Shown here in pieces: positions 8,698 through 62,210 of a DNA stretch of 64,000 nucleotides. The stretch's first letter is position 1, and each line of letters opens with the position of its first letter. This stretch comes from Vicinamibacteria bacterium (GTDB taxonomy: Bacteria > Acidobacteriota > Vicinamibacteria > Marinacidobacterales > Marinacidobacteraceae). The notes beneath the pieces are model-generated. The model was not told where the DNA came from. It made no database searches and worked only from the letters and a program-made list of their open reading frames with translations. The stretch lies in NCBI GenBank assembly GCA_963668695.2, contig CAXXLQ010000004.1, forward strand, positions 2,048,001-2,112,000, in the 5' to 3' direction. A program made the position numbers and the translations under genes.

Positions 8698-9571
8698 TCA
8701 GGTGGGCCCTGGAGTTCGGAGTTTTTCCAGCCGTTCGATCAACTTCCATACATCCGTAAAAGAGGACGCGCCCGAGTCGGAGACGCGCTTTGCATTTGAG
8801 ACCGCTGTCGGGATCCGATCGGCGATGCGTTCGAAGACTCCGGCGTCGTTCTTCTGGTAGTCCGGTAGATGGCGCCTTAACAGCCGGTGGTGAAACCCAC
8901 GTGAGCGCCGAGGCCGGCCAGTTCTCCCGGTGGGGGCGAGGCCCAGTTCTCCCGGTGGGGCCAGTTCTCCCGGTGGGGGCCCGGCTGACAAGGCGCGTGA
9001 GGGAGGAATACCGGGTGTATTTCGACCGAAACGCAACGCAGAACGCAGCGAAGCGGGGTGGTTCAGCCGGGATGGATCGCCGGTCGAACGCCGCGTGGGT
9101 TTTGCCACAGGCTGTTAGTTCCCGGGTAACTTGAGCGCACGCTGACTGGCCGGGAACCCCGGCAAAAGGCTTGGTCGTGAACTCGAAATGCAGGAGGAGC
9201 CAGAATTCGAAACAGGGCCTCGAGACGGCGACGTGAAATGCCGGCGCTGCGGTCTGCACGCCGGCGCGTATTGCTTTGGATCGAAAATCGGCTACAGCCA
9301 ACTCCCGGCCGTCGTGATCCAGGACGCACCAGATTTCGTCCCCCGGAGACATGCTGCGCGCTTCGCGGCGAACTCGTTCTTGTAGTCGCGCCAACCCAGT
9401 ACCCGGCTCACTTCCCAGCACCCGAACGCTAGGCAATCGGTACCACTGCTTGAGGGCCGAGAAATAGTGGGGCTCGGTCCGTGTACCTTCGCAGAGAATC
9501 AGAATCGAGGAACGGCCCTTGCGCCTCGCTCGCGTACGTTTCCCGAACGGGCGCTGTTTCGCCGAAGCCAC
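8698..9571 (-). pseudogene. RloB-like protein interrupted by a MITE
   Basis: ILCEGTRTEPHYF, WCVLDHD, SRPCFEFWLLLHF; removing 8880-9117 restores ...VTRELRRHLPDYQK...FTDVWKLIERL. Confidence 0.85.
8880..9115. mobile_element. Family A MITE, 236 bp, TA target duplication
   Basis: TA-acagccggtgg...ccacaggctgt-TA; the empty site can be rebuilt from the interrupted reading frame. Confidence 0.9.
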
Positions 9572-10855
9572 TCAGTCGGTAGGAACGAACTGCGGCGTCG
9601 AGGTCACCGGAATCCCTCCGTAGCGTCCAGTCAGATAGCCGCGCTCCAAGGCTTCCCGCCTCCGAGGGTGGAAGTGGGAGAGCGGAGTGAGGTTTGCGGC
9701 CTCACTTGGTCGTTCCTTGTCGGTCAGCCAGATCTGGCCGCGGTCCAGCGCTCCGCCAAGGAGAGTAGTGTCGTGCAGAGTGGCAATCAGCTGACCCCGC
9801 CTGCTGCTGTCGCTTCCACTGTTGAGACGTCGCAGGAGCGCTTCCACGAGCAGCGGATGGAGGCTGTGGTCAAGCTCGTCTACTACTAGAACCCGATCGT
9901 TATCGAGGATGTCGAGAAGCGGCCATGCCAACGCAAAGAGTCGTTGGGTGCCGTCCGATTCTTGTTCCAGATCCAGGAACTGAAGATCGCTACTTCCGTC
10001 GACTGCGTGGCCGAGTTGCGTCTGGAAAGACTCCACAGAATCCGCACCTGTCTTTGACAACTCCTTGAGGATGCTGGGCGGCACACTTTCCCTCATTGAT
10101 TCGAGGCTTGTCTTCTCTCTCCTGACTGACACATCGGCCGCCGTGATGTCGGCGGCCCGCAACAGCTCCAGTACACGCCGCTTTTTCGTTTCGTCGGCGA
10201 GGACTGCCTCGGGCGTGTAGGTGTCCGACAAATAGTCGGGTCCGATACCCGCCAACCGCTTCCGAAACCACTCGACTACCGGAGTGAAGATGTCGCTGTT
10301 GAGTTGGGCAGCAACGGACACAAGCAGGGCGTTCTGGCGGGTGCTGCGCCGCCAGACTTCCTTGGGACCCGACACCGAGTGGCCGAAGGTCCACTCGTAG
10401 CTCTGGTTCCCCACATCCCAGCGCCGCTCCAACAGCAAGCGCTTCCGGCCATCCGGGGGCCAGACCAGGAGAGACTCGGAGCGAACCCGCTCCCGGTCGA
10501 GGGAGAACGTGTACTCGTAGCAAGAGCCGTCCTCAATGAAGCTGACTTCGAAGATCGTTGGGCGTGTCCGGGTCTCGGTGTCGAAGAGGAACGGCGTATA
10601 CGGAATTTCCTCGCCGGCTTGGGTGCTGGTTGCCGATTTGACCACGAAGCTCTTGGCAAACATCAGCCCCAGGAGCAAGCGAGACTTGCCACTGCCGTTG
10701 GGGCCGTAGATCGCCGTCACCCGGTTCAGCCGGGGTGCCCTCCGGGAGCCGCTGTCGAATGCGTGTAGATCACTTGCCCGCGTTACGGCTTGGACACTCA
10801 GCTCGTGCCGTTCCCGAAAGCATGCATAGTTCGTCAATGCGAAGGCGACTAACAT
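9572..10855 (-). CDS. ABC-type ATPase, AAA_21 / RloA-like
   Basis: Walker A GPNGSGKS, ESDGT signature, Walker B VVDELDHSLHP, ATLH, YLTGRYGGIP; AGGAGG before ATG 10855; lower GC than flanks. Confidence 0.88.
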   Translation of the reverse strand: MLVAFALTNYACFRERHELSVQAVTRASDLHAFDSGSRRAPRLNRVTAIYGPNGSGKSRLLLGLMFAKSFVVKSATSTQAGEEIPYTPFLFDTETRTRPTIFEVSFIEDGSCYEYTFSLDRERVRSESLLVWPPDGRKRLLLERRWDVGNQSYEWTFGHSVSGPKEVWRRSTRQNALLVSVAAQLNSDIFTPVVEWFRKRLAGIGPDYLSDTYTPEAVLADETKKRRVLELLRAADITAADVSVRREKTSLESMRESVPPSILKELSKTGADSVESFQTQLGHAVDGSSDLQFLDLEQESDGTQRLFALAWPLLDILDNDRVLVVDELDHSLHPLLVEALLRRLNSGSDSSRRGQLIATLHDTTLLGGALDRGQIWLTDKERPSEAANLTPLSHFHPRRREALERGYLTGRYGGIPVTSTPQFVPTD

Positions 10856-11086
10856 GGCTTGCCTCCTGGGATAACGGCCATATTTTACTGATTGTTGACG
10901 ATTTCTACAAGAAAATCTATCTTGTTTCGGCAGATCACGCGTTTGGCGTTCGATTGGGGGTCGCGGCCGCAACCCTCATCCGTCCGTCGTCGCCGGGTAT
11001 CGCTGTGGTGGTCCGCGCCGGCGCATTGGCGCGAACCATCGCGACTTGTCCCAGTGCCGCCAGTGGATATTCGGCGCGCGTCCCGC

Positions 11087-11763
11087 TCAGGCTGTGGCTC
11101 CCGCCCGCGCCCGCAGGAAACTGTCCCAGTCATCCACGTCCAGGAGTTCCTGCTTCGTTGCCGGGACGACCACGAGATCCTGTCGGTGTCTTGAGAGGAC
11201 GCGCCCGGCGCCCCGGTCCCGGCCTCCGTCTTCGATCGCGCGGGTCCCCGAAAGTTCGAGCACCTCGGGAAAAAGGCGCCTTCGGAGCACCACCGGCAGG
11301 CCCCAGGTTCCCGTCCGCTGCATAGCCGAAGTGGCCGGTACGGCCGCGGCGGGGGGGTGCCGGGGCTCGGCCGCGGCGGCGACCAGCCTGCGAATGAGGG
11401 TGGCGGAAAGGAAGGGTTGGTCCAGCGGGGCAACCACCGCCCAGAAGACGTGCCGCTCGGCGGCCAGCGCCCGGATTCCGACCTGGAGCGACGAGAGCAT
11501 GCCCCGCTGGTAGGCAGGGTTTGGGACGGCGCGCACCGCGAGTCCCCGGAGCTCAGGGGCGATCTCCCGATGGGCGTGGCCGAGCACGGCGATCACCGGG
11601 TCGAGACCGGCGGCGATGAGCGTCTCCGCGGCGGCGCGGATCAGGGTCCGGCCGGAGCCGTCCGGGTGGGGGAGGAGGGCCTTGGTGCGGCGCATCCGCT
11701 TCGACTCGCCGGCGGCGAGGAGGATCCCGGCGGCTGCCGCGGGACGTTCCGCGGTCGTCGCCA
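11087..11763 (-). CDS. mocA: Molybdenum cofactor cytidylyltransferase (MocA-like nucleotidyltransferase)
   Basis: GILLAAGESKRM (upstream of the listed ATG 11695), NPAYQRGMLSSL, DQP, DVDD; start uncertain, in-frame CTG used. Confidence 0.7.
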
Positions 11764-12019
11764 GCGGGTCGGTCGGGGGAATGGCGGAGGGTCCTGAGAG
11801 GTAGGGGAGGGGAGCAGCGAGTGTATTGCGGTCCTCACGAGAATCGGAGGAGCTTCGCGGTAGGCTGGAAACCCGTGAGACATCAGTTTCTTCTCCTTCC
11901 TCGTCTCCTGCGGAGAAGAGGGCGTCTCAGGCACGCCTACCGTCCCGCTGGCGCCGCCGCGGTTTCGCCCGCGTTCCGCGGGCGGTGCCAGTCTGAAGAC
12001 TGGCGTTCCCGGGCGTGCC

Positions 12020-12434
12020 GTCTTTCGGTGGGTTGGCGTATCGCTCAACGCGAAAAAAACTGATGGCAGCGAACTTGTTCGCTGCCCGCCTGACCGGGGG
12101 GAAAGTGTGAAAGGGGGGTACCCCCCCCTTTTCACAAAAAGGTAACGACCAATCGGAACTCGCCGCCGCGCGCCTTCGGCGCGCAAGGGAGTTTCGATTG
12201 CCGGCGCGAAGCGCCGGGCGGTTCGGAAGGGGGGCCACCTTTGATCAGGCTAGGCGACCAGCCATCAAACCGACCAAGCGCCCCCCTTCCGGAACGCTCG
12301 ACGACGGGGAAAGCGTGAAAGGGGGAACTCCCCCTTTCGCAAAAAAGGCAACTACGAATCGGAACTCGCCGCAGTGCGCCTACGGCGCACAAGGGAGTTT
12401 CGATTCCGGCGCGAAGCGCCGGGCGGTTCGGGAA
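12020..12434 (+). repeat. Family C repeats: one full and one 5'-truncated copy
   Basis: Similarity to 2446-2606 at about 12064-12228 and 12307-12434. Confidence 0.8.
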
Positions 12435-12521
12435 CGGGGCGTTCACCCCACACCGAGCAGACGGTGCAAGACCAAAGGTCCGATTGGGGAGTGAACGCCC
12501 CGTTCCCGGACCGCTCCGGAC

Positions 12522-13169
12522 TTAGTGTTCGCCTTCGCCGTCGACGACGAACCCGAGGGTGAGGCCGCCCTCCCAGGGGTAGCCGAGCGCCCAGGCGCCG
12601 GCGTCGTCCTGAAAGACGGTCGGCTCGCTGATGCCGTCCCAGTTCGGGGCGAGGCTCATCACCGCCGGGTGGCCGATGCCGGTGGCGGCGAAGCTCATGA
12701 TGTTCAGGTCGTCCTGTCCCCACTCGACGTCAACGGTCATGTCCTCGACCACCGGAACGAGCAGCACGTAGTCGAGGTGGACGGAAACGCCCATGTGGTT
12801 CCCGTCCTCCGGGCGATTCCCGTAGCGCATGGTGAAGACGCCGGGCTCGATCGGATTCCCCTTGTAGTCGGACCAGGGGCCGTCGATCCGGACCACCCCG
12901 ACCAGGGTCCCCACCTTCAGGTCGGGGAAGGTGGCTCCCGGATTCGTCCCGCCCCCACCGGGGGCCTCGGTCCGTAGCCAGAAGTCGAGGTTCACTCCCG
13001 AGCCGAGCGTCGTCCGGACGCCTTCGGCTCCTACCACCGCCCGGATCTCGTCGGAGACGCCCTCCGGAGGGGCGCCGTCGGCCGCCGCCAGGGTCGGCTG
13101 ATCGCTTGCGAGTGCGAGGCCGGCAGCGAGTACCCCCGCGGGCAGCAGATAGGCGAAACGCAAAGGCAC
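12522..13169 (-). CDS. Secreted hypothetical protein
   Basis: Signal peptide from GTG 13169; globular region GVFTMRYGNRPEDGNHMGV, GHPAVMSL; the upstream extension of the listed ORF is MITE sequence. Confidence 0.7.
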   Translation of the reverse strand: MPLRFAYLLPAGVLAAGLALASDQPTLAAADGAPPEGVSDEIRAVVGAEGVRTTLGSGVNLDFWLRTEAPGGGGTNPGATFPDLKVGTLVGVVRIDGPWSDYKGNPIEPGVFTMRYGNRPEDGNHMGVSVHLDYVLLVPVVEDMTVDVEWGQDDLNIMSFAATGIGHPAVMSLAPNWDGISEPTVFQDDAGAWALGYPWEGGLTLGFVVDGEGEH

Positions 13170-13189
13170 GTACACCGGGCGACGCGCTA

Positions 13190-13606
13190 GCAGTCGGTGG
13201 GCGAAGTCGCGTGAGCGCCGAGAGCGGCGAGGCGTCCGGCTGACAAGGCGCGCGAGGGAGGAGCCCCCACCGGGAGAACTGGCCCGCGTGTATTGCGACC
13301 GAAGCGCAACGATGAGCGACGCGAAGCAGAGCGGTGAACAGTCAGTGGTGGAACCCGCGTGAGCGCCGAGGCTGGCGAGGCCCAGTTCTCCCGGTGGGGC
13401 CAGTTCTCCCGGTGGGGGCCCGGCTGACAAGGCGCGTGAGGGAGGAATACCTGGTGTCTTTCGACCGAAACGCAACGATGAGCGGCGCGCAGCGACGCGG
13501 TCAGCCGGGATGGATCGCCAGCCGAACGCCGCGCGGGTTTCATTACTGGCTGTTTGGCCGGAATGAATCGCCGCTCGAACGCCGCGTGAGTTGGTTCACC
13601 GGCTGC
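13190..13606. mobile_element. Family A MITE, compound copy
   Basis: TA-gcagtcggtgg...caccggctgc-TA; the empty target would be the palindrome gacgcgcTAgcgcgtc. Confidence 0.8.
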
Positions 13607-13614
13607 TAGCGCGT

Positions 13615-14304
13615 CTAGCGAACGAAGGTGCCGAGGAAGGCGCTCCGCTTGAGCGGGCAACTCCACGTGGTGTTGAAGTCGTCGCCCCGGAACGAGTGGG
13701 CCTCGGTGTAGGCCGGCATCGCGTCCGCGATCTCGGTCAGCGGCGGGTAGTACACGAACTCGCTGCCGCAGAGGTGATCCTTGTGGGTGAGCGCCCGGGT
13801 GCGGAGCTCCACCAACTCGCCGGCCGTCAGCGAGGCGTGCCCCGGCCGGCTGTCGAAGTCCGCGGCCACCGGAGCGTCGTGAATGTTCAGGACGTTCTCG
13901 AGCAGTTCGCCGCCCATGTCGTGGGCAAGCTGGATGAGCGCGGCTCGCTGGTCGGCGTTCGCGTTCTCGTCCACGATCAGCACCGACTTGGCCGGATAGG
14001 GGTTGGCATGCGGATCGCCCAGCGTGGCCTGCGCCTTCACCACCGCGACTACCGAGAGCCCGGACAGATCGACGCCCTCGTACGTCCCGTCGGAGACGTT
14101 CCAGGCCAGCACGGCTTCCTGTCCGTCCAGCCCGACTTCGCTGTTCGCGAAGCAGTGACCGGCGTACACGTCTGCGGTGCGGGCCTCGAGGTAGAGCCCC
14201 TCAAGTGTGGCGTCCGACTCGCCGGGACCACCAGGTCCACCGGCGAAAGCCGTCGCGCCCATCGCGAGGAGGGCGGCTGCCAGCAGGAAACGCGAAATCT
14301 TCAT
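13615..14304 (-). CDS. Secreted DUF1326-like protein
   Basis: Signal peptide; YLEARTADVYAGHCFANSE, HLCGSEFVYYPPL; GGAGG ribosome-binding site. Confidence 0.7.
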   Translation of the reverse strand: MKISRFLLAAALLAMGATAFAGGPGGPGESDATLEGLYLEARTADVYAGHCFANSEVGLDGQEAVLAWNVSDGTYEGVDLSGLSVVAVVKAQATLGDPHANPYPAKSVLIVDENANADQRAALIQLAHDMGGELLENVLNIHDAPVAADFDSRPGHASLTAGELVELRTRALTHKDHLCGSEFVYYPPLTEIADAMPAYTEAHSFRGDDFNTTWSCPLKRSAFLGTFVR

Positions 14305-14499
14305 GACACTTCCTCCATCGGGAAACCGCCGCTCGGGGCGGTCAGCCGAATGTCGCAGTTTAACAGCCGCAGGTTGCCCACCGTACGCGGCTGGCCCAGG
14401 CTCAGCAGGCTGTGCTGAAACCCAGGCGGCGTCCGTCCGCGACGCGGCAGGTTGCCCACCGCACGCGCGTGCCGCGGGCTTAACAGGCTGTGCTGAAAC

Positions 14500-15211: not shown

Positions 15212-15222
15212 CGTCTATCCCC

Positions 15223-19006: not shown

Positions 19007-19788
19007 ACAGTCGGTGGTGGAACCCACGTGAGCGCCGAGGCCGGTGAGGCGCCCGGCTGACAAGGCGCGTGAGGGAGGAATACCGGGTGTATTCCGACCG
19101 AAACGCAACGATGAGCGGCGCGCAGCAGAGCGGTGAACAGCCGGTGGTGGAACCCGGGTGAGCGCCGAGGCCGAGGCCCAGTGGTGGAACCCCGTGAGCG
19201 CCGAGGCGCAGCGACGCGGGCCAGTTCTCCCGGAGGGGGCGAGGCCCAGTTCTCCCGGTGGGGCCAGGGGCCCGGCTGACAAGGCGCGTGAGGGAGGAAT
19301 ACCGGGTGTCTTTCGACCGAAACGCAACGATGAGCGGCGCGCAGCGACGCGGTGAACAGCCGGGGTGGATCGCCGGGGCCGAGCGCCGATGAGCCGGCGA
19401 GAACTGGGCCGCGTGGGTTTCACTACCGGGCGGTTCAGCCGGGATGGATCGCCGGCCGAGCCCCCACCGGGAGAACTGGGCCGCGTGGGTTTCACTACCG
19501 GCTGTTTGGCCGGGATGGATCGCCGGCCGAGCCCCCACCGGGAGAACTGGGCCGCCGGGTTTCACTACCGGCTGTTTGGCCGGGATGGATCGCCGGCCGA
19601 GCCCCCACCGGGAGAACTGGGCCGCGCGGGTTTCATCACAGGCTGTTTGGCCGGGATGGATCGCCGGCCGAGCCCCCACCGGGAGAACTGGGCCGCGCGG
19701 GTTTCATCACAGGCTGTTTGGCCGGGATGGATCGCCGGCCGAGCCCCCACCGGGAGAACTGGGCCGCGTGGGTTTCACCACCGGCTGT
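19007..19788. mobile_element. Family A MITE compound array with about 5 tandem 71-bp internal units
   Basis: TA-acagtcggtgg...ccaccggctgt-TA; tandem units at about 19435-19788. Confidence 0.85.
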
Positions 19789-19852
19789 TAGCAGTCGAAA
19801 GGCCCCCGCCGGGAGGGGCCAACCGCCGCTCCCGCCGGTTACGATCCCGGAT

Positions 19853-22324: not shown

Positions 22325-22441
22325 CAGCCTGTGGACGGAGTGGTGTGAGCGCCGAGGTCGGCGTTCTCTCGGCGGACGAGGCGCGCGCCGGCCGAGCCCC
22401 CACCGGGAGAACTGGGCCGCGCCACTCCGTTTACAGGCTGT
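22324..22441. mobile_element. Short family A MITE variant
   Basis: acagcctgtggacggagtgg...ccactccgtttacaggctgt inverted ends; the hbd stop TAA is the flanking TA plus the first base of the element. Confidence 0.7.
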
Positions 22442-23782: not shown

Positions 23783-24118
23783 CCCAGGCCGGAGCGGACC
23801 CGAAGGGGCCGCCCGGCGCTGTGTGCCGGTCTCCGCCCGGCGTCGTCCGCGGAATGCGGGCGAGACCGCGAATCGCCGACTGAGAGGAAGCGCGGGGACG
23901 GCTTGGAACGCCGACCTCCGGTCGGCACAGCGGCGCGCAGCGCCGCGGGCGGTTCACCGCTGATCGTGGGAGAGGGCACGCAGGCCCGGGAACGCCGACC
24001 TCCGGCCAGTCCTCCCGGTGGTCGGCACAGCTGCGCGTCAGCGCAGCGAACGGCGCACCGCCGATCCACTTCAAGCGCGGCCGGTATAGGGAACGCCGCC
24101 TCCAACTGACCTGCGTTA

Positions 24119-24354
24119 ACAGCCTGTGGTGAAACCCGGGTGAGCGCCGAGGTTGGCCAGTTCTCCCGGTGGGGGCGAGGCCCAGTTCTCCCGGTGGGGC
24201 CAGTTCTCCCGGTGGGGGCCCGGCTGACAAGGCGCGTGAGGGAGGAATACCTGGTGTATTTCGACCGAAACGCAACGCAGAACGGAGCGAAGCGGAGTGG
24301 TTCAGCCGGGATGGATCGCCAGCCGAACGCCGCTTGGCTTTTACCACAGGCTGT
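24119..24354. mobile_element. Family A MITE, 236 bp (partial copy follows to about 24444)
   Basis: TA-acagcctgtgg...ccacaggctgt-TA. Confidence 0.85.
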
Positions 24355-25454: not shown

Positions 25455-26696
25455 ATGATCCTCGCACGCCCCGGTGCGATTCGGCGTATTGCCCAGTCGT
25501 TCCGGGTCCATCCCGCGGTGGCGTTGCTCGGGCCCCGCCAGTGCGGCAAGACAACCCTGGCCCGCCTCTTGGCCGCTGGCGAGCCGGTATCCACGTTCTT
25601 CGACCTGGAGCGGGATGCCGACTTCCGGCGTCTCCAGAACCCGGAGGCGACCCTCTCGCCCCTCGGCGGACTCGTCGTGGTGGACGAGATCCAACTTCTC
25701 CCGCAGTTGTTCCGGGCGCTGCGGCCCATCATCGACCATCCGGCCGCCGCGGCCCGGTTTCTGTTACTCGGGAGCGTGTCGCCGACGGTCGTCAAGGGAG
25801 CGTCGGAATCGCTTGCCGGCCGGGTGGGGCTGGTGGACCTCGCCGGGTTCGATCTCGGCGAGGTTGGGTCGGGCCCGGACTGGCGGATCCTCTGGGAGCG
25901 TGGAGGCTTCCCCCGCAGCTATCTCCAACCGGACACGAGTGCGTCCCCGGACACGAGTGCGTCCCCGGACACGAGTGCGTCCCCGGACACGAGTGCGTCC
26001 CCGGACACGAGTGCGTCCTACGAATGGCGCGAGAACTTCATCCAGACTTTTCTGCAGCGCGACATTCCCGCGCTCGGGGGAAACGTCCCGGCCGCGGCGC
26101 TCCGTCGCTTCTGGTCCATGACGGCGCATTTTCACGGGCAGGTCTGGAACGCCGCCGAGTTCGCCCGCGCCCTCGGGCAGGGGGAGGCGGCGGCGCGCCG
26201 CTACCTCGACTTGCTCGCCGGCGCGTTCGTGGTCAGGGCGCTTCCCCCGTGGTTCGAAAACCTCAAGAAACGCCAGGTCCGTTCCCCCAAGGTGTACGTG
26301 CGCGACACCGGCATGCTCCACGCTCTGCTCGGCGTGCCGTCCCTCGCCGTGCTCACCGGCCACCCGAAGGTCGGAGCCTCGTTCGAGGGTTTTGCCGTCG
26401 AACAGATCTGCGCCGCCCTGTCTCCCCGCGATCCCTTCTTCTGGGCCACCCACGCCGGCGCGGAACTCGATCTCCTGCTGACCTCGAACGGCAAGCGCTA
26501 CGGCTTCGAGGTCAAGTTCACCGAGGCGCCCCGCACCACCCGCTCGATGCGGGTCGCGCTCTCCGACCTCGGTCTCGAACGCCTTTTCGTGGTCTATCCG
26601 GGGGATGAGGGCTATCCCCTCGATTCCCGGATCGAGGCTCTTCCCGTGCGTGAAATCCCGCGGCTACCCGCGCGTCCGGAGTTTGCCGCGGGGTGA
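25455..26696 (+). CDS. ATP-binding protein (AAA_14 + DUF4143 type)
   Basis: GPRQCGKTT, VDEIQ, ESLAGR, GGFP, PKVYVRDTG, C-terminal ELDLL...FEVK nuclease-like motif. Confidence 0.88.
   Translation: MILARPGAIRRIAQSFRVHPAVALLGPRQCGKTTLARLLAAGEPVSTFFDLERDADFRRLQNPEATLSPLGGLVVVDEIQLLPQLFRALRPIIDHPAAAARFLLLGSVSPTVVKGASESLAGRVGLVDLAGFDLGEVGSGPDWRILWERGGFPRSYLQPDTSASPDTSASPDTSASPDTSASPDTSASYEWRENFIQTFLQRDIPALGGNVPAAALRRFWSMTAHFHGQVWNAAEFARALGQGEAAARRYLDLLAGAFVVRALPPWFENLKKRQVRSPKVYVRDTGMLHALLGVPSLAVLTGHPKVGASFEGFAVEQICAALSPRDPFFWATHAGAELDLLLTSNGKRYGFEVKFTEAPRTTRSMRVALSDLGLERLFVVYPGDEGYPLDSRIEALPVREIPRLPARPEFAAG
25929..26018 (+). repeat. In-frame 18-bp tandem repeat x5 (PDTSAS)
   Basis: Five perfect copies of ccggacacgagtgcgtcc. 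Confidence 0.95.
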
Positions 26697-26769: not shown

Positions 26770-27141
26770 GGCGGGCTGCGGTGCCGGCCGGAAGCCGGCG
26801 TTCCTGACGTGTGTGCCGTGCGGGTGAGTGGCGGAGGGAGTTTCGCCCGCTGTGCGGCCGCGATGCCGGTCTGAAGACCGGCGTTCCCAGCCCTCCGGGC
26901 CGCGGTGCCGACCGGAAGCCGGCGTTCCTGTGCCGTGCGGGTGAGTGGCGGAGGGAGTTTCGCCCGCTGCGCGGGCGATGGCGGTCTGAAGGGCCCCACC
27001 GGGAGAACTGCCCGGCGCTCCTGCGGTCGCGGGCCATTCCTCCCGCGGGGGTACGTGCCGAGACGGGAGCCATCCCGGAAACGGGCTGATACGCCGTCCG
27101 CCCCGCTGCGCGGGCGATGCCGGTGTGAACACCGGCGCTCC
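26770..27141 (-). repeat. Family B hairpin repeat cluster
   Basis: gccggtctgaagaccggc and gccggtgtgaacaccggc palindromes; tgtgccgtgcgggtgagtggcggagggagtttcgcc twice, also near 52780. Confidence 0.65.
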
Positions 27142-38266: not shown

Positions 38267-38568
38267 TTCGGTTCGACCCTCAGCGTCCCCGTCGGAGCGC
38301 CGTCGAAGCTTCCGGCCCATCGCCGCCTTGGTCATCCCCGCTTCAGCAAAGAGCGGACCGGCACCCGCCGATACCTCGAGCATCGCTTCTCTCCTCTCTG
38401 GGGAGCAGCGCCTTGCTGTCGCGCGGCATCTGCGCGCGGAACAGGACGTGGTCTCGCGGGCCTGCGGGGCGGTGCCGGTCTGAAGGGCCCCACCGGGAGA
38501 ACTGCCCGGGGTTCCCTGCTTGCGCGCCGTGAGGGTGGGTGGCGCGTCCCTGAACGAGTGAAGGTGAT

Positions 38569-39190: not shown

Positions 39191-39426
39191 GCAGCCTGTG
39201 GATAAAGTGACGTATGCGCCGAGACCGGCCAGTTCTCCCGGTGGGGGCGAGGCCCAGTTCTCCCGGTGGGGGTCCGGCTGACAAGGCGCGTGAGGGAGGA
39301 ATACCGGGTGTATTTCGACCGAAACGCAACGCAGAGCGACGCGAAGCGCCAGTTCTCCCGGTGGGGGGGCGGTTCAGCCGGGATGCATCGCCGGTCGAAC
39401 GCCGCGTGACTTTGTCCACAGGCTGC
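39191..39426. mobile_element. Family A MITE, 236 bp
   Basis: TA-gcagcctgtggataaagt...actttgtccacaggctgc-TA. Confidence 0.85.
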
Positions 39427-43999: not shown

Positions 44000-44062
44000 A
44001 TCGCCGCTCGAGCCCCCACCGGGAGAACTGGGCCGCGTGACTTTGTCCACCGGCTGCTGACC

Positions 44063-45370: not shown

Positions 45371-45439
45371 GGATGGCGCCTCCGCAAAAATCATACTACT
45401 CAGTAGCACCCTCGCCCCCGAGCGCGTCATCTTCATCCA

Positions 45440-46889
45440 CTCCACGCTGAAGCCGCCCAGCTCCACGCTGTAGCGGGATCTGCCGGGGCCAGCTCCACGC
45501 TGGAGCCGCCCAGCTCCACGCTGTAGCGGGATCTGCCGGGGCCAGCTCCACGCTGTAGCCGCGGAACTCCACGCTGTAGGGGGATCTGTTGGCCTGAACT
45601 CCACGCTGTAGCCGCGGAACTCCACGCTGGAGGGGGATCTGTTGGCGTGAACTCCACGCTGTAGCCGCGGAACTCCACGCTGGAGGGGGATCTGTTGGCG
45701 TGAACTCCACGCTGTAGCCGCGGAACTCCACGCTGGAGGGGGGTCTGCCGGCGTGAACTCCACGCTGGTAGCCGCGGAACTCCACGCTGTAGCGGGGTCT
45801 GCTGGCGGAACTCCACGCTGGTGCCGCGGAACTCCACGCTGTGGCGGGGTCTGCGCGCTGTAGCCGCTGTAGCGGCGGAACTCCACGCTGTAGCGGGGTC
45901 TGCTGGCGTGAACTCCACGCTGTAGCCGCGGAACTCCACGCTGTAGCGGGATCTGTCGGCGTGAACTCCACGCTGTAGCCGCGGAACTCCACGCTGGAGG
46001 GGGGTCTGCCGGCGTGAACTCCACGCTGTAGCCGCGGAACTCCACGCTGTAGCGGGGTCTGCTGGCGTGAACTCCACGCTGTAGCCGCGGAACTCCACGC
46101 TGTGGCGGGGTCTGCTGCTGGCGGGAACTCCACGCTGAACTCCACGCTGTACTCCACGCTGTGGCGGGGTCTGCGGCGTGAACTCCACGCTGTAGCCGCG
46201 GAACTCCACGCTGTAGGCGGGAACTCTGTAGGCGGGCGGGGCTGCTGGCGGGAACTCCACGCTGTAGGCGCGGAACTCCACGCTGTGGCGGGGTCTGCTG
46301 GCGGGAACTCCACGCTGTAGGCGCGGAACTCCACGCTGGAGCCGCGGTACTCCACGCTCTGGCGGGGCTGGTCTGGCGTGAACTCCACGCTGTAGCCGCG
46401 GAACTCCACGCTGTGGCGGGGTCTGCTGGCGGGAACTCCACGCTGTAGGCGCGGAACTCCACGCTGTGGCGGGATCTGTTGGCGTGAACTCCACGCTGTA
46501 GGCGCGGAACTCCACGCTGTGGCGGGGTCTGCTGGTGGGAACTCCACGCTGGAGGGGGTGGAACTCCACGCTGTGACTCCACGCTGTGGCGGGATCTGCT
46601 GGCGTGAACTCCACGCTCCACGCGCGGAACTCCACGCTGGAGGGGTTCGGCGGATGGGAACTCCACGCTGTAGCCGCGGGACTCCACGGGCGGGGTCTGC
46701 TGGTGGGAACTCCACGCTGGGAGCCGCGAAGCTCCACGCTGGAGGGGTTCGGCGGATGGGAACTCCACGCTGTGGCGGGATCTGTTGGGTGGAACTCCAC
46801 GCTGGGGCCGCGAAGCTCCACGCTGTAGCGGGGTGCGCTGGTGGGGACTCCACGCTGGAGCTCCGCCGGCGGCCGGGAACTCCACGCTG
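45440..46889 (+). repeat. Helically phased direct-repeat array: about 55 x CTCCACGCTG, 21/32-bp spacing, 53-bp higher-order unit
   Basis: Core starts at 45440, 45461, 45493, 45514, 45546, 45567, 45599, 45620, 45652, 45673 ... 46880. Confidence 0.95.
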
Positions 46890-55812: not shown

Positions 55813-56048
55813 GCAGCCTGTGGTGGAACCCGGGTGAGCGCCGAGAGCGGCGAGTCCTCCCGGTGGGGGCGAGGCGCCCGGCTGACAAGGCGCGTGAGGG
55901 AGGAGCCCCCACCGGGAGAACTGGCCCGAGTGTATTTCGACCGAAACGCAACGCCGAGCGCCGCAAAGCGCCAGTTCTCCCGGTGGGGGGGCGGTTCAGG
56001 CGGGATGGATCGCCGCTCGAACGCCGCCTGGGTTTCGCCACCGGCTGC
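55813..56048. mobile_element. Family A MITE, 236 bp
   Basis: TA-gcagcctgtgg...ccaccggctgc; right flank is TG. Confidence 0.8.
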
Positions 56049-56050
56049 TG

Positions 56051-56490
56051 GGAGCGCCGGCCAGTTCTCCCGGTGGGGCCCTTCAGACCGGCATCGCTCC
56101 TCGCAGGGGAGCGAAACTCCCCTTGCCCGACTCCCTCAAGTCGCGTCCAACTCCGGGGATGGTTCCGCGCCGAAACTCCCGTCGCCACTCCCCGCATGGC
56201 GCCGCACAAAATAAACTCCCATCGCCACTCCCCGCATCGCGCCGCAGGACCAGGAGCGCCGCCAGTCCTCCCGGTGGGGGCCTTCAGACCGGCACCGCTC
56301 CCCGCAGGCTGGGAGCGCTGGGCAGTTCTCCCGGTGGGGCCCTTCAGACCGGCATCGCTCCTCGCAGGGGAGCGAAACTCCCGTTGCCCGACTCCCTCAA
56401 GTCGCGTCCAACTCCGGGGATGGTTCCGCGCCGAAACTCCCGTCGCCACTCCCCGCATGGCGCCGCACAAAATGAATTTCCGTCGCCCCT
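56051..56490 (+). repeat. Family B repeat cluster with a local duplication
   Basis: About 56051-56225 is repeated at about 56312-56486; also similar to 7527-7690. Confidence 0.75.
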
Positions 56491-56500
56491 CGCGTTGCCC

Positions 56501-57877: not shown

Positions 57878-58223
57878 GCGCAGGAAACACCGCAGGGAAT
57901 AGGAGCGCCGGCCAGTTTTCCCGGTGGGGGCCTTCAGACCGGCATCGCGGTCCGCAGGCCGCGAAACTCCCATCGCCAGTCCCCGCATGGCGCAGCAGGC
58001 AACGGGAATGGCGCAACGTCACCCACGCTTGGAACGCCGACCTCTAGTCGGTTCCGCGGCCCGGAGCCCAGCGGAACCGACTACCGCCCTCTCGTGCAGT
58101 GTCCCACCGGCAAGGGGCTGTCGCGGGCCATCCGGGCTGTCACCGCCACCCCTACCTCCCACTGCCGTACAATTCCCCACGTCCTCCCCCCCTGTAATAA
58201 AAAGGAAGGAACGGGTTTCAACA

Positions 58224-58502
58224 TTGAACAAGGCGGATCTCGCGGCGGCCGTCCGAAGCTTCCACGGCGGCGTTACCGGCGCCGAAGCCCTGCGGATCGT
58301 GGACACCATCTTCCAACGCGCGGCGGACGGTCTGGCTGCCGGCAGAACCCTGAAGATCCGGCGGTTCGGATCGCTCGAGGTCCGCTCGCGCGGTCCCCGG
58401 CGGGGTCGTGATCTCCGCACCGGGCGCATCTTCTTCTCGTCGGCCCTCCGGAAGCCGTTCTTCCGCCCCTCCATCCACCTGCTCAGGAGTCTTCAGTCGT
58501 GA
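58224..58502 (+). CDS. IHF-alpha-like DNA-binding protein (divergent)
   Basis: LNKADL...LKIRRFGSL...GRDLRTG...FRPS; lies just before merR and tRNA-Pro. Confidence 0.75.
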   Translation: MNKADLAAAVRSFHGGVTGAEALRIVDTIFQRAADGLAAGRTLKIRRFGSLEVRSRGPRRGRDLRTGRIFFSSALRKPFFRPSIHLLRSLQS

Positions 58503-58918
58503 CGCCGGCCAGCGACGGCGGGCTCCAGATCCCGAACAAGCTCTATTTCCGGATCGGCGAGGTCAGCGAGATCACCGGGGTCCAGCCGTACACCCTCCGT
58601 CACTGGGAGATGGAGTTCCCGACGCTGAGCCCCAAGAAGAACGATTCCGGCCAGCGCCTCTACCGCAAGGAAGACATCGAGATGGTGCACACCATCCAGC
58701 GTCTCCTGCACAGCGAGGGGTACACCACCGCGGGCGCCCGCCGCCTGTTGAGCGCGAAGCGCGGACCGCGTCCGGTGGTCCCGCAGCCTCCCCCTCCGCC
58801 CCCGAAACCCGACCCGCCGCGGCTCTCGCCGTCCGCGCTCGGAGCGGTGACCGCGGCCCTCGGGTTGATGGACCGCAACGACGAGCGGCTCGCCCGTCTG
58901 GAGGCTCCGGAGGACTAG
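58499..58918 (+). CDS. MerR-family transcriptional regulator
   Basis: IPNKLYFRIGEVS, LRHWEMEFP, GQRLY, EGYTTAGA. Confidence 0.9.
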   Translation: MTPASDGGLQIPNKLYFRIGEVSEITGVQPYTLRHWEMEFPTLSPKKNDSGQRLYRKEDIEMVHTIQRLLHSEGYTTAGARRLLSAKRGPRPVVPQPPPPPPKPDPPRLSPSALGAVTAALGLMDRNDERLARLEAPED

Positions 58919-58934
58919 AATCCGAACGATCCGT

Positions 58935-59011
58935 CGGGACGTGGCGCAGTCTGGTAGCGCACTTGCTTGGGGTGCAAGTGGTCGTCGGTTCAAATCCGGC
59001 CGTCCCGACCA
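58935..59011 (+). tRNA. tRNA-Pro(GGG)
   Basis: cttgc-TTGGGGT-gcaag anticodon arm; GGTTCAAATCC; CCA encoded. Confidence 0.95.
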
Positions 59012-59085
59012 GAGCGATTCCCAGAAGGGGCCCCCACCCGGACTGGATTCGGCCCGTACCGGATTTGGATCGTTTGGTTCGGTGA

Positions 59086-59713
59086 ACAGCCGGTGGTGGA
59101 ACCCGGGTGAGCGCCGAGGTTGGCCAGTTCTCCCGGTGGGGGCGAGGCCCAGTTCTCCCGGTGGGGCCAGTCCTCCCGGTGGGGGCCCGGCTGACAAGGC
59201 GCGTGAGGGAGGAGCCCCCACCGGGAGAACTGGCCCGGGTGTATTCCGACCGAAGCGCAACGATGAGCGGCGCGAAGCGACGCGGTGAACAGCCGGTGGT
59301 GGAACCCACGTGAGCGCCGAGGCCGGCGAGGCGCCCGGCTGACAAGGCGCGTGAGGGAGGAGCCCCCACCGGGAGAACTGGCCCGGGTGTATTTCGACAG
59401 AAACGCAACGATGAGCGGCGCGAAGCGACGCGGTTCAGCCGGGATGGATCGCCGGCCGAGCCCCCACCGAACTGGGCCGCGTGGGTTTCATCACCGGTTG
59501 TTTGGCCGGGATGGATCGCCGGCCGAGCCCCCACCGGGAGAACTGGGCCGCGTGGGTTTCATCACCGGTTGTTTGGCCGGGATGGATCGCCGGCCGAGCC
59601 CCCACCGGGAGAACTGGGCCGCGTGGGTTTCATCACCGGTTGTTTGGCGGGATGGATCGCCGCTCGAGCCCCCACCGGGAGAACTGGGCCGCGTGGGTTT
59701 CACCACAGGCTGT
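59086..59713. mobile_element. Family A MITE compound array with tandem 71-bp units
   Basis: acagccggtgg...ccacaggctgt-TA. Confidence 0.8.
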
Positions 59714-59729
59714 TAAGTCGAGGCCCCTT

Positions 59730-59860
59730 TCGGGAATCGCCCCGGCGCTGCGCGCCGGGCATCGAAACTCCGACGCGCGCCAGAGGCGCACGTCGGCGAG
59801 TTCCGATTGGTTGTTGTCGATTTGTGAAAGAGGGAAATCCCCTCCTTTCACATTTCCCCC
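59730..59860 (-). repeat. Family C repeat, reverse orientation
   Basis: ggcgagttccgatt and tgtgaaag...ctttcaca hairpin. Confidence 0.7.
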
Positions 59861-60194
59861 GATCACGCCGGCGGCGCGCTCGGCCAGGCGCCGCCTGAAC
59901 GCCGATCTCTGGAAAGCTCTATGGGGGTGGATGGCTGCCCGCGGCCGCGGACAAGCACACAACCTCGGACTGACGGGGGCCGCCGGGCAGGGGGACGCCG
60001 GGCAGGGGGACGCCGGGCAGGGGGACGCCGGTATTCACGCCCCCACCGGGAGAGCTGGCCGACCCCGCGGCCCGCAGGGCCCCGAAACCCCCACCGATGC
60101 CGCCAGTCCGACCAGACAACCCGGATTCCCGCCCCGCCGGCGCTCCCGGTGGTGATGCCCGACAGCGCTCAGGACCGAATTGAAAGTCGGCTGT

Positions 60195-60337
60195 CCGGGA
60201 GGTCAGGACCGACCTGAAGGCGGAGATCGCCGTCCGGGCGGACTCTCTTGAGAAGCAGATCCGCCTGACCTGGGTCTTCCTGACGCTGCAAGGCGGTGAC
60301 GCTCACCGCCGTCCTCGTCCGACTCTTTGCCGGCTGA
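60195..60337 (+). pseudogene. Frameshifted remnant paralog of the 60571-61062 gene
   Basis: VRTDLKAEIAV...KQIRLTWVFL / TLTAVLVRLFAG* versus KEVRLIWGAL...TLTAVLVRLFGG*. Confidence 0.65.
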
Positions 60338-60465
60338 CCGCGACGGCGCCCGATAGGGACCGCTCGCCCCCGCCCGGCATCGCCCCCGCCCGGCATCGCC
60401 CCCCAAGGGCATCGCTCCCGCCCGGGCCAAAACGCACATGCCGCCCACGCTCACGGCCGGCAACC

Positions 60466-60524
60466 GCGGCGACTTTTCCACATCTACCCCCGGACGCGGG
60501 AAGAAACGGACCCGGTTTCCGTCT
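60466..60524 (+). promoter_or_regulatory. 59-bp conserved non-coding motif, copy 2
   Basis: Colinear match to 37281-37339. Confidence 0.45.
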
Positions 60525-60570
60525 GTATCCGTAAGGACGGCGTTTGCCGTTCGAACGGAGGAAACACGAC

Positions 60571-61062
60571 TTGCCACGAACCCAACCAACCGACCCCGAA
60601 TCCCAGCCCGTCGCGGCATCCGCTGACAATCCCGCGCGCCGTCCCACTCCGGGCACCGCGACCGATACCCCCACGCCTTCCGGGCCCGAACGACCGGACA
60701 GCGCCCTGTTCCGCGTTCTTCTGGCTGCTGGCGGAGACCCGATGACTACCTATACTGCGATGAAGGAAATGGAAGTCATGGTCGGCCACGGTGTCGTCGC
60801 CCAGCTTGGCGACCAGATCCAGGTGCTTGCCGCGACACTCGACAGGGTGGAGAACAACCTCGCGACGGTCAAGACGGATCTCGCGACGGTCAAGACGGAT
60901 CTCGCGACGGTCAAGACGGATCTCGGGACGGTCAAGACGGATCTCGGGACAGTCAAGACGGATGTGGCGGTGCTCAAGAAAGAGGTCCGCCTGATCTGGG
61001 GCGCCCTCGTCCTGGCGGTTCCGACGCTCACCGCGGTCCTGGTCCGGCTCTTCGGCGGCTGA
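60571..61062 (+). CDS. Heptad-repeat coiled-coil protein with C-terminal TM anchor
   Basis: GGAGG before TTG; L(A/G)TVKTD x5 (21-bp repeats); C-terminal hydrophobic helix. Confidence 0.75.
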   Translation: MPRTQPTDPESQPVAASADNPARRPTPGTATDTPTPSGPERPDSALFRVLLAAGGDPMTTYTAMKEMEVMVGHGVVAQLGDQIQVLAATLDRVENNLATVKTDLATVKTDLATVKTDLGTVKTDLGTVKTDVAVLKKEVRLIWGALVLAVPTLTAVLVRLFGG

Positions 61063-61119
61063 ACGCCCCGGTCGGGCAGGGACCCCCGACCTCCGGCGGC
61101 CATCGCGATCCGCACGCTA

Positions 61120-61420
61120 GGAACGCTGGGCAGTTCTCCCGGTGGGGCCCTTCAGACCGGCATCGCGGCCGAAGGCCGCGAAACTCCCATCGTTATTCCC
61201 CGCATGGCACTACTGGGACTAGGAACTCCCGTCGCCAATCCCCGTATGGCGCCGCCAGGGAAAAGGAGCGCCGGCCCCCCGGCCGTCACCGCGGCCCGCA
61301 GGCCCGGGAACGCTGGGCAGTTCTCCCGGTGGGGCCCTTCAGACCGGCATCGCGCGGGAGCGCGAAACCAGCGCTGATGACGCGCTGCCAGGGAACGCCG
61401 GTGTTCACACCGGCACCGCC
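61120..61420 (+). repeat. Family B repeat cluster
   Basis: cttcagaccggcatcgc copies carrying the 18-bp insert; empty gccggtgttcacaccggc at about 61397. Confidence 0.7.
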
Positions 61421-61451
61421 CGCCGCAGGCGGGCGGACGACGTAACCCCTA

Positions 61452-62025
61452 ACAGCCGGTGGTGGAACCCGGGTGAGCGCCGAGGCCGGGGAGGCCCAGT
61501 TCTCCCGGTGGGGCCAGTTCTCCCGGTGGGGGCCCGGCTGACAAGGCGCGTGAGGGAGGAGCCCCCACCGGGAGAACTGGCCCGGGTGTATTCCGACCGA
61601 GACGCAACGATGAGCGGCGCGCAGCGATGCGGTTCAGCCGGGATGGATCGCCGGCCGAGCCCCCACCGGGAGAACTGGGCCGCGTGGGTTTCACTGCCGG
61701 CTGTCTGGCCGGGATGGATCGCCGGCCGAACTGGGCCGCGTGGGTTTCACTACCGGCTGTTTGGCCGGGATGGATCGCCGGCCGAGCCCCCACCGGGAGA
61801 ACTGGGCCGCGTGGGTTTCACTGCCGGCTGTTTGGCCGGGATGGATCGCCGGCCGAGCCCCCACCGGGAGAACTGGGCCGCGTGGGTTTCACTACCGGCT
61901 GTTTGGCCGGGATGGATCGCCGGCCGAGCCCCCACCGGGAGAACTGGGCCGCGTGGGTTTCACTACCGGTTGTTTGGCGGGATGGATCGCCGCTCGAACG
62001 CCGCGTGGGTTTCGCCACAGGCTGT
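61452..62025. mobile_element. Family A MITE compound array
   Basis: TA-acagccggtgg...ccacaggctgt-TA; about 5 tandem 71-bp units. Confidence 0.85.
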
Positions 62026-62027
62026 TA

Positions 62028-62210
62028 ACAGCCGGTGGTGGAACCCGGGTGAGCGCCGAGAGAGCGGCGAGGCGCCCGGCTGGCAAGGCGCGTGAGGGAG
62101 GAATACCGGGTGTATTTCGACCGAAACGCAACCCAGAACGGAGCGAAGCGGAGTGGTTCAGCCGGGATGGATCGCTGCTCGAACGCCGCCTGGGTTTCAC
62201 CACCGGCTGT
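62028..62210. mobile_element. Family A MITE, minimal 183-bp form without 18-bp inserts
   Basis: acagccggtggtggaacc...ggtttcaccaccggctgt; shares the TA at 62026-62027 with the previous copy. Confidence 0.85.

Follow-up and report, generated by a model that had tools for sequence, protein, structure and literature searches.

Background

Units of about 20 bases are, to our knowledge, too short for any known transposition chemistry. The closest described elements are the small dispersed repeats (SDRs) of the Nostocaceae (Elhai et al. 2008, Genome Res 18:1484). SDRs are 21-27 nt long, and several of them (SDR4/5/6) reportedly share a hairpin backed by compensatory changes. Here, an 18-base unit, CCAGTTCTCCCGGTGGGG, hereafter U, was analysed in a stretch of 64,000 nucleotides from a Vicinamibacteria bacterium (C4:2048001-2112000, "the window"), in the remainder of its genome and in related genomes. 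The source genome comprises 4.10 Mb in four contigs (of which C1, C3 and C4 are referred to below) with 67.5% G+C, and is 91.7% complete by marker genes with a 'contamination' figure of 9.34%.

Other short repeats differ from SDRs in organisation. BIMEs of enterobacteria and BOX elements of pneumococci are mosaics whose short modules vary in presence from copy to copy, in many combinations and with tandem repetition of one module, and we know of no case in which such modules entered unrelated sequence or coding genes. DNA uptake sequences (DUS of Neisseria, USS of Pasteurellaceae) have cores of 9-12 bases; they originate through point mutation, and most of them are located in ordinary genes and terminators. 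For SDRs, a passage in PMC4390886 calls SDR5 a 'repeat module' whose insertion point is exactly between the third and fourth bases of the HIP1 octamer, an excerpt of PMC5861425 states that SDRs were not found outside Nostocaceae, and part of PMC3116915 lists them among unexplained short repeats. Neither exact U, its reverse complement nor the genus name Marinacidobacterium occurs in any of the papers searched, and broader searches returned nothing relevant.

The evidence presented below shows that U enters non-homologous DNA in both orientations. We give about an even chance to the explanation that U forms the core of a discrete micro-insertion module, non-coding and about 20 bases long, which would combine rare templated primary insertion by a family-specific factor with passive spread inside other repeats.

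Results

Abundance and sequence of the unit

U is a real and strongly non-random feature. In the window, 37 exact matches were found on both strands (0.00 expected from 100 shuffles), and 51 matches with up to three mismatches (0.14 expected), which agrees with the roughly 50 copies counted in an initial annotation of this DNA. The genome-wide count that the annotation had proposed yields 1,288 exact copies, 648 forward and 640 reverse, and 1,679 matches with up to three mismatches (one mismatch, 278; two, 65; three, 48). No replichore bias was found, with 325 forward and 344 reverse copies in one replichore and 293 and 270 in the other. Positions 1, 3 and 6 and the final bases hold most of the mismatches, the central CTCCCGG is least variable, and the commonest variant is T6C with 156 copies.

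The left flank of U is G-rich, with G at position -2 in 92% of the copies and G or C at -1, and GC follows directly on the 3' side in 87%. The unit therefore measures 18 bp, or 20-21 bp including this constant flank, usually as U+GC. No long conserved extension beyond U+GC was found in the source genome, in G018 (a relative from another genus) or in metagenome loci. U is not self-complementary, its terminal inverted repeats do not exceed 3 bases, and inverted doublets of U with itself do not occur. By eye, its 18 bases could form no more than a weak 4-bp stem with one mismatch (CCAG..CCGG), which an A3G variant would perfect. Halves of U outside whole units (127 of 1,415 left halves, 490 of 1,778 right halves) are mostly point variants. 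Since half-units almost never stand alone, U does not represent the joined ends of a longer element.

Host repeats

Almost all copies of U are located inside repeats. The main host is a hairpin miniature inverted-repeat transposable element (MITE) flanked by TA, here called MITE-A. Its insert-free form at 62028-62210, correctly given as 183 bp in the initial annotation, was used as reference and folds as one long hairpin (DNA z -6.06, RNA z -9.45). A BLAST search of the source genome with this reference returned 931 pieces, which correspond to 724 loci with 228 complete copies, and any one part of the reference is covered by up to about 650 pieces. The lengths of the 228 complete copies increase in steps of 18 bp (near 181, 199, 217, 235, 253 and so on). 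The BLAST-defined loci contain 883 of the 1,288 units, and by eye most of the others lie in arrays of MITE-A ends or in diverged copies. Five main sites in the reference are occupied as follows.

S1: reference position about 35-38, forward
S2: reference position about 46, forward, one or two units in tandem
S3: reference position about 75, reverse
S4: reference position about 122, forward
S5: reference position about 157, reverse

There are at least three rarer sites, including reverse units within the S1 region in about 15 copies. The right-end module of MITE-A, consisting of the terminal repeat and a subterminal part, is repeated up to 5.6 times in head-to-tail arrays and exists in versions of 53 bp (empty), 56 bp (partly deleted unit) and 71 bp (filled). 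On inspection of the sequences, the terminal repeat and U have CAG...CCGGTGG in common. Arrays of the right-end module in the window are located at 19394-19789, 59438-59714, 61637-62026 and 13504-13605.

In G001, the closest species found, the orthologous place lacks the copy at 8880-9115 and has equal length after subtraction of the MITE and one TA. An autonomous parent of MITE-A was not found: where two MITE ends lie at a distance of 450-4000 bp, the DNA between them is always unique sequence.

The second host, family B, is unrelated to MITE-A and resembles repetitive extragenic palindromic (REP) sequences. It consists of two hairpins, both with stems that covary between copies, in the layout GGGAACGCCGG-TCTTCAG-ACCGGCA[T/C]CGC, followed by the second hairpin, of which the stem varies and stays paired, and by GCGAAAC(TCCC). 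The tail motif matches 319 places in the genome, some of them by chance. U or a variant is located in the left arm of hairpin 1 or, as a mirror image, in the right arm. Within the window, family B occurs at 7526-7605, 57900-57990, 61119-61190, 61306-61375 and elsewhere. Its orientation shows a modest replichore bias (47 versus 26 and 27 versus 32).

U also adjoins a further hairpin type in the source genome. Clustering the 16+16 flanking bases of 1,287 units resulted in 70 context groups, including 32 singletons, many of which are by eye diverged members of the same families. In four low-copy relatives, 24 sites were inspected by eye, of which 18 are REP-like hairpins, 4 are relatives of MITE-A and 2 are apparently coding. 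The insertion points in the folds of MITE-A and family B fall in stems and internal loops alike. For this reason, the 'hairpin-rich DNA' named as the target in the initial annotation is an apt description of the hosts, while no target rule can be demonstrated from it.

Entry into coding genes and unrelated repeats

An RND transporter gene outside the window (C4:393184-396339, 1,051 aa) contains U in frame, where it encodes PHRENW, and is apparently intact; the unit is also present in the co-assembled haplotype copy on C1. The impression from the window that U is missing from intact genes thus has to be given up. Among 27 related orthologues in public genomes, the unit occurs only in the closest (97% amino acid identity), and 26 of the 27 are empty (77-94%). 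The empty site reads GAGCCCG-CG-CGGGAT and the filled site GAGCCCG-GCCCCCACCGGGAGAACTGG-CGGGAT, so that a 20-mer (U+GC) stands in place of 2 bases with a net gain of 18. A second coding gene is filled in the relative G012, with an additional 18 bp compared to the source genome.

In G018, the homologous MITE keeps the S3-empty form GGAATACC and has U at positions that are unused in the source genome. There, U entered twice at C|GA|GGCGC according to the same rule, with 2 bases lost and the 20 bases of U+GC gained. In metagenome contigs, where 97 units were found in 80 loci, the prevailing sites are different again. Homologous exchange cannot place U in unrelated sequence, as would be needed at the RND, G012, family-B and G018 sites. 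Comparison with relatives indicates that the empty site is ancestral wherever an outgroup exists. The initial proposal of a discrete micro-element found at non-homologous sites in both orientations is therefore well founded, with several MITE positions, family B and two coding genes as its hosts.

The empty and filled pairs from which this proposal was drawn are all present in the window: gggagga[ata]ccgggtgt near 9001 versus its filled counterpart near 59207, cga[ac]gccgcgtggg near 9086 versus its filled counterpart near 19457, the one or two tandem forward units at 8943-8978, and the filled family-B site at 7537. The junctions fall into three classes.

RND gene, S2, S4, S5 and both G018 sites: 2 target bases lost, 20 gained
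S1 and family B: 1 target base lost, 20 gained
S3: 3 target bases lost, 21 gained

Each fill has a net gain of 18 or 19 bp, the same values as initially read from the window. None of the seven types of junction inspected shows a target-site duplication; U takes the place of 1-3 target bases. A strict target word for U was not found: the targets differ between sites and have in common only the G-rich left flank and the loss of 1-3 bases. Three candidate rules were rejected. A 4-bp target duplication (GGCC) fits the strain-polymorphic family-B site but not S2, S5 or the RND gene, and insertion between the G and C of a GC dinucleotide fits only family B and S1. Quasi-palindrome copying between the facing sites S1 and S5 is too weakly reflected in their joint occupancy (14 versus about 9 expected).

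Two further arrangements were observed in G018. A 92-bp repeat at G018:C1:758400-758900 contains a truncated unit (its first 13 bases) directly followed by a full unit, and 44-bp arrays consist of half a hairpin and a unit.

Features of the window

The four MITE-A copies of 236 bp contain three units each in three different arrangements, as the initial annotation had reported, with the copies at 8880 and 24119 alike. The features related to U are listed below, with MITE-A and its derivatives first.

8880-9115, plus strand: MITE-A copy, 236 bp, flanked by TA, with units at S1 (8918-8935) and a tandem pair at S2 (8943-8978); S3, S4 and S5 empty
24119-24354, plus strand: MITE-A copy, 236 bp, arranged as the copy at 8880 (S1 and double S2)
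39191-39426, plus strand: MITE-A copy, 236 bp, with units at S1 (39229), S2 (39254, single U+GT allele) and S4 (39349)
55813-56048, plus strand: MITE-A copy, 236 bp, with an S1 variant (55851, 2 mismatches), S3 in reverse (55907) and S4 forward (55971)
62028-62210, plus strand: insert-free MITE-A, 183 bp
61452-62025, plus strand: MITE-A with double S2 and S3, followed by modules of 71 bp (filled) and 56 bp (partly deleted unit) and a last empty one; adjoins the insert-free copy via a common TA
19138-19788, plus strand: composite with approximate start, consisting of a MITE-A left part (units at 19221 and 19246) and 5.6 tandem 71-bp right-end modules, each with a reverse unit at S5
59086-59713, plus strand: composite of two MITE-A left parts (units at S1, S2 and S3) and 4 tandem 71-bp right-end modules, one of which has a unit lacking 4 bp (59460-59473)
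13225-13605, strand unassigned: MITE-A-derived with unrefined boundaries, units at 13265 (minus) and in tandem at 13382 and 13400 (plus), then 53-bp right-end modules free of units
22398-22415, minus strand: U at an S5-type site in a short diverged MITE-A end
44014-44031, minus strand: U at an S5-type site in a truncated MITE-A right end
7526-7605, plus strand: family-B element with a T6C unit (7537-7554) in the left arm of hairpin 1
7689-7730, plus strand: family-B element with a C1G unit (7700-7717)
26994-27011, minus strand: C1G unit at the mirror position (right arm, reverse) of a family-B hairpin
38488-38505, minus strand: C1G unit at the mirror position of a family-B hairpin
56262-56339, plus strand: two neighbouring family-B elements, 60 bp apart, with T6C and C1G units
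57912-57929, plus strand: one-mismatch unit in a family-B element
61130-61147, plus strand: C1G unit in a family-B element
61317-61334, plus strand: C1G unit in a family-B element
24006-24023, plus strand: decayed unit with 3 mismatches in a family-B variant hairpin (GCCGACCTCCGG...)
60041-60058, minus strand: one-mismatch unit beside a 15-bp tandem repeat, at neither a MITE-A nor a standard family-B position

An Rfam scan of the window returned five tRNAs and nothing more. The window also contains tandem repeats of other kinds. A long imperfect array at 45439-46773 (53-bp unit, 21.6 copies, GAACTCCACGCTGTAGCC motif) coincides in part with long minus-strand open frames, a perfect 18-bp repeat in 5 copies at 25929-26018 is unrelated to U, and a 21-bp repeat in 5 copies at 60859-60963 lies inside a 172-aa open frame (60544-61062).

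Alleles and passive spread

The places matching four of the MITE-A sites were scored for their state.

S3: 406 places matched, 156 empty, 243 filled
S2: 542 places matched, 310 empty, 78 filled by a single and 129 by a double unit
S1: 208 places matched, 129 empty, 74 filled
S4: 157 places matched, 111 empty, 43 filled

The distribution is bimodal, with essentially two canonical alleles at each site. The filled alleles have private marks: single fills of S2 are U+GT in 68 and U+GC in 6 cases (n=74), double fills are U-U' or U-U, and at S3 TAT is replaced in every case. Such marks suggest few origins per site, and together with the two canonical alleles they indicate that most of the 1,288 copies stem from few primary insertions rather than from about 1,300 separate ones. 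The earlier claim that U is being written in at many sites therefore needs correction: primary events are rare, and most copies reflect host multiplication and allele exchange.

The states of the sites are nearly independent of each other. Occupancy shows 33 patterns among the 228 complete copies, and each of the 10 possible pairs of sites is found in all four states. Backbone distances were calculated for 213 MITE-A copies, after 15 on duplicated haplotype stretches had been dropped. The mean distances between two filled copies and between a filled and an empty copy were 0.080 and 0.085 for S1, 0.083 and 0.087 for S2, 0.078 and 0.087 for S3, and 0.068 and 0.082 for S5. At S1-S3, the backbones of filled copies are hardly nearer to one another than to those of empty copies, so that site state is almost independent of backbone relatedness. 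S4-filled copies are clearly closer to each other (0.040 versus 0.081), which indicates a young subfamily.

Strain variation could be observed directly, since the assembly contains co-assembled haplotypes. Over 275,101 aligned columns with 99.06% identity, the state of U agrees at 82 of 93 sites. Clean presence or absence accounts for 6 of the 11 differing rows; three of these concern S2, two concern adjacent S3 sites, and one, of 19 bp, is in family B. These six differences are switches between canonical alleles (ATA versus G-U-GC, GC versus U-GT), with flanks mostly identical across about 100 bp. They are best explained by ectopic gene conversion between MITE-A copies; deterministic re-insertion is a possible, less favoured alternative.

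The remaining five rows represent four distinct small or partial indels. One of them is a loss of 15 bp, and a second, independent loss of the same kind was listed in a variant unit (C1:94439 and C4:3820448). One affects a unit at S3 and the other the variant unit at S2, and in both the last 13 unit bases and GC are missing and CCAGT is left. This may be due to a deletion hot spot or an aborted event. In general, internal deletions between strains are imprecise (9-15 bp) and do not regenerate the empty allele.

The duplicated stretches of the assembly, with 97.6-99.9% identity, are C1 with C4:304-421 kb, C3 with C4:3505-3538 kb, and C4:3780-3914 kb with C4:11-148 kb. They look like co-assembled strain haplotypes rather than plasmids, which fits the 'contamination' figure. 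C1 differs from C4 by three extra inserts of 2.4, 11.7 and 14 kb. In addition, C4 contains a tandem array of about 23 kb (C4:2803874-2826790) with a period near 351 bp and copies that are 90-94% alike, and a second array at C4:3762096-3769064.

U is far more uniform than its surroundings. Column identity is 0.992 in U and 0.907 in the MITE-A backbone, and 89% of 325 units are exact compared to a mean of 20% (maximum 62%) expected for 18-mers of the backbone. U is thus young or constrained relative to its host repeats. The variant T6C occupies S2, S1 and family B and is also common in G019, from another genus. This occurrence at several sites and in another genus suggests that new copies inherit the state of old ones.

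Distribution across genomes

Of 28 genomes from one Vicinamibacteria family, 22 contain exact U; they are distributed over five genera and include all 16 genomes of the genus of the source genome when the latter is counted. Neither the 16 genomes searched from two sister families nor the 400 from other Acidobacteriota contain it, and in the latter four single one-mismatch matches compare with eight for the reversed control. Public metagenome contigs contain exact U in at least 132 stretches. Among the complete genomes of the family, the source genome, G001, G004, G008 and G018 are rich in U, G009 and G019 are intermediate, G010 and G020 have almost none, and G017, G022, G024 and G041 have none. 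The numbers of exact matches and of matches with up to three mismatches vary strongly between genomes.

Source genome (G000): 1,288 exact, 1,679 with up to three mismatches
G018: 220 exact, 430 with up to three mismatches, reversed control 10
G009: 83 exact, 194 with up to three mismatches, reversed control 15
G019: 36 exact, 100 with up to three mismatches, reversed control 9
G005: 8 exact, 54 with up to three mismatches, reversed control 14
G010: 6 exact, 63 with up to three mismatches, reversed control 13

In all genomes inspected, no variant is as common as the exact word, and the MITE consensus is visibly different between genera. As the exact share drops with copy number, the pattern points to burst and decay of a mobile element and not to general purifying selection. 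MITE-A was found in none of five U-free genomes of the family at E<=1e-5, in a search with the reference of the source genome only, by which diverged relatives could be missed.

Three DNA runs, from two studies, have contigs that cover the window and its repeat-bearing bins, and these contigs break at MITE edges. In viral contigs, one exact copy of U was found at 1501-1518 of a 23-kb contig in an unrelated context of lower G+C; it is probably due to chance or coding sequence.

Searches for an enzyme or master locus

Two agents suggested by the initial annotation, a reverse transcriptase (RT) or an HUH enzyme of the kind of the REP-associated tyrosine transposases (RAYTs), were not supported. 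RT domains (PF00078, RVT_1) gave no match in the source genome, an absence that is not absolute at its estimated completeness. Y1-HUH domains (PF01797; RAYT/IS200-type) gave no match there either, in a search of which the controls matched in 6 of 14 known genomes, and U shows no replication-strand bias. The sole TnpB-type match in the source genome falls below the cut-off, and one IS110-type gene is present. The proposed master locus was not found in the source genome.

An IS630-type (DDE_3) element at C4:667064-668191 is located between MITE-A copies and has its own ends (TGTGGTGT...). It was rejected as a candidate, since its ends differ and its distribution does not follow that of U: it occurs in 7 of 28 genomes, is absent from the U-rich G018 and has relatives of only 32% identity in G008. 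Its transposase is 98-99% identical in G001, where it occurs in 12 copies, and in G004, at a level of about 85-88% DNA identity for ordinary genes. An identity so far above that of ordinary genes suggests recent transfer between species.

Discussion

Proposed explanation

In the explanation to which we give an even chance, the module is occasionally written into a new, non-homologous place in either orientation, replacing 1-3 bases without target duplication, as the junctions show. Most of the later increase is passive, as MITE-A and family B multiply and tandem end-modules expand. In addition, the approximately 650 MITE-A copies very probably swap filled and empty alleles by ectopic gene conversion, and this exchange accounts for five sites that are near linkage equilibrium and strain-polymorphic. 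The primary insertion itself would copy an existing unit, as suggested by variants that breed true at several sites and in several genera. It would depend on a family-specific, sequence-recognising factor that is neither an RT nor a Y1-HUH enzyme, to which the discrete boundaries point, as does a consensus that is exactly the same in five genera despite the divergence of the host repeats. Within the reach of the methods used, RT, Y1-HUH/RAYT, a strand-biased single-strand mechanism, joined ends and an artefact are excluded.

A bolder claim, which we put forward tentatively and hold to be possible rather than probable, is that the factor represents a new DNA-writing activity: sequence-specific, distinct from RT, HUH and two-ended transposases, and copying a 20-base module in either orientation in place of 1-3 bases. 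If this is true, no smaller self-propagating DNA unit would be known from bacteria, and U would be the first system of this type beyond the Nostocaceae.

Several points weigh against the proposed explanation. The discrete boundaries and the conserved consensus make up the evidence for the putative factor, and no enzyme, master locus, longer parent or free intermediate of U was identified. The junctions are uneven, with 1, 2 or 3 bases lost and 20 or 21 gained, and this could fit repair-type joining. Within MITE-A, re-insertion is indistinguishable from gene conversion, and the private marks favour conversion. True primary insertions may therefore be few; by our own estimate, there may have been a few tens at most in this lineage. 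U and MITE-A are not separated phylogenetically, because the five U-free genomes searched also lack detectable MITE-A, and U could be maintained as a service to MITE-A. Lastly, the counts are coloured by the selection of the 228 'complete' MITE-A copies by similarity to a single reference and by duplicated haplotype sequence, which amounts to about 7% of the assembly.

Alternative explanations

The unevenness of the junctions leads to a related explanation, in which the element and its spread are the same but primary insertions are by-products of repair or replication, arising by microhomology template switching or by capture of fragments at breaks. The abundant unit would then simply be the likeliest donor. 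The replaced bases are consistent with this, as the variable junctions are G/C-rich with 1-3 bases of possible microhomology, and the 9-15 bp deletions between strains show error-prone processing at U sites. The lack of a candidate enzyme, with RT and Y1-HUH absent, the TnpB-type match below cut-off and the IS630-like element missing from G018, also agrees with it. However, template switching should copy variable donor flanks, whereas the same 18-20 bases recur across contexts and genera. Without recognition the consensus should drift, but the exact word is commonest everywhere inspected and its centre is least variable. We therefore regard this origin as rather unlikely. Conservation of the word is the starting point of another explanation, according to which U is a functional protein-binding word, such as an extra site for the MITE transposase or an uptake or recognition signal, kept by selection or drive. 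This would account for exact copies across five genera with equal strand counts and no replichore bias, for units far more uniform than their host repeats, and for the co-occurrence of U with MITE-A (0 of 5 U-free genomes). The CAG...CCGGTGG shared with the MITE terminal repeat, and MITEs carrying up to several units, are in line with it as well. In low-copy genomes, however, the units are mostly decayed (exact 6 of 63 and 8 of 54), and this speaks against purifying selection in general. The origin of new copies is by insertion of 18-21 bp and not by point mutation, and units in family-B hairpins and two coding genes have no evident role for the MITE. As a binding function explains maintenance but not entry into new sites, it appears distinctly unlikely as the full explanation.

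It could further be asked whether there is an independent element at all. U could be a segment of MITE subfamilies, with its variety produced by recombination, rearrangement and deletion from one ancestral insertion, an objection that the initial annotation had itself raised. Site alleles with private marks do look single-origin, the strain differences are canonical allele switches, S4-filled copies form one young subfamily, and 883 of the 1,288 units are in BLAST-defined MITE-A loci. Orthologous empty sites in coding genes contradict a single ancestral insertion: the RND gene is empty in 26 of 27 relatives, and U is also found in the G012 gene, in family B, at other positions in G018 and in both orientations at S1. 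Nor do the empty forms appear to be deletions, as they are ancestral where an outgroup exists, and the deletions observed are imprecise and do not restore the empty allele. This explanation is thus very improbable. An artefact in the form of an adapter or barcode, also considered initially, or of an assembly error has a practically negligible probability. No support for it was found; the assembly does contain duplicated haplotype stretches. It is contradicted by exact U in 22 of 28 separately assembled family genomes and in the metagenome stretches, by the contigs of three DNA runs from two studies that cover the window, by the in-frame unit in a conserved gene of two species and by the quantised MITE lengths.

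Significance

U is one of the smallest mobile-looking DNA units seen in bacteria and is best regarded as an unrelated case of very small mobile repeats, from a phylum new to them. SDRs have been the one described precedent, unexplained since 2008 and thought to be confined to one family, and U adds a second, unrelated case. The case for independent insertion is unusually clean, in a family of uncultured marine Acidobacteria. U offers clean orthologous empty sites, strain polymorphism and complete genomes with between 0 and about 1,300 copies. The movement of micro-elements thereby becomes a comparative question, namely which genes track the bursts. U also remodels repeats, with hairpin MITEs growing by 18 bp at a time, and it can extend a protein by six codons without disrupting it. 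Several per cent of the genome consists of U words and their hosts, and this will interfere with efforts to assemble and bin the genomes of these sponge-associated bacteria.

Comparison with known systems

Systems with known enzymes resemble U in part. Like MITEs, U is non-autonomous, lineage-specific and of high copy number. In contrast to MITEs, any terminal inverted repeat of U is limited to 3 bases, its insertion produces no target duplication, and at 18-21 bp it is too short for two transposase-binding ends; the long terminal hairpin and TA flanks of a MITE are instead found in its host, MITE-A. U shares with REP/REPIN-RAYT systems that it is short, abundant, extragenic and confined to a lineage, and its family-B hosts look REP-like. 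However, U is not palindromic, forms no inverted doublets, has no strand bias, and the source genome has no Y1_Tnp gene. Templated insertion by an RT, as in retrons, diversity-generating retroelements or group II introns, is not indicated in the source genome, which has no PF00078 match, and the replication orientation bias of IS200/IS605-type elements is missing from U.

Among repeats described mainly by their sequence, BIME and BOX elements are similar in that U-filled repeats are likewise modular, with tandem repetition of one module. The difference is that insertion of U outside a mosaic host is proven by orthologous empty sites. With uptake sequences, U shares about a thousand copies of one exact word that are equally distributed between strands, family-wide and absent outside the family. 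Unlike these, it comprises 18-20 bases, arrives as an insertion, is located almost entirely inside repeats and is decayed in low-copy genomes.

The closest likeness is to SDRs. Both are very short, non-coding and dispersed in many copies, although U is slightly shorter than the size range of SDRs. Both are nested in other repeats including minitransposons, in the case of U in MITE-A, family B and tandem end-modules. In both, insertion is recognised from filled and empty sites, and mechanism and enzyme are unexplained. U differs in its length of 18-21 bp, its occurrence in Acidobacteriota and, as judged by eye, the lack of a convincing hairpin. It also has no strict target word, in contrast to SDR5 with HIP1, and replaces 1-3 target bases. 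Judged by the descriptions of SDRs, U is therefore best described as an element that works like an SDR and is set apart from them by taxon and target rule.

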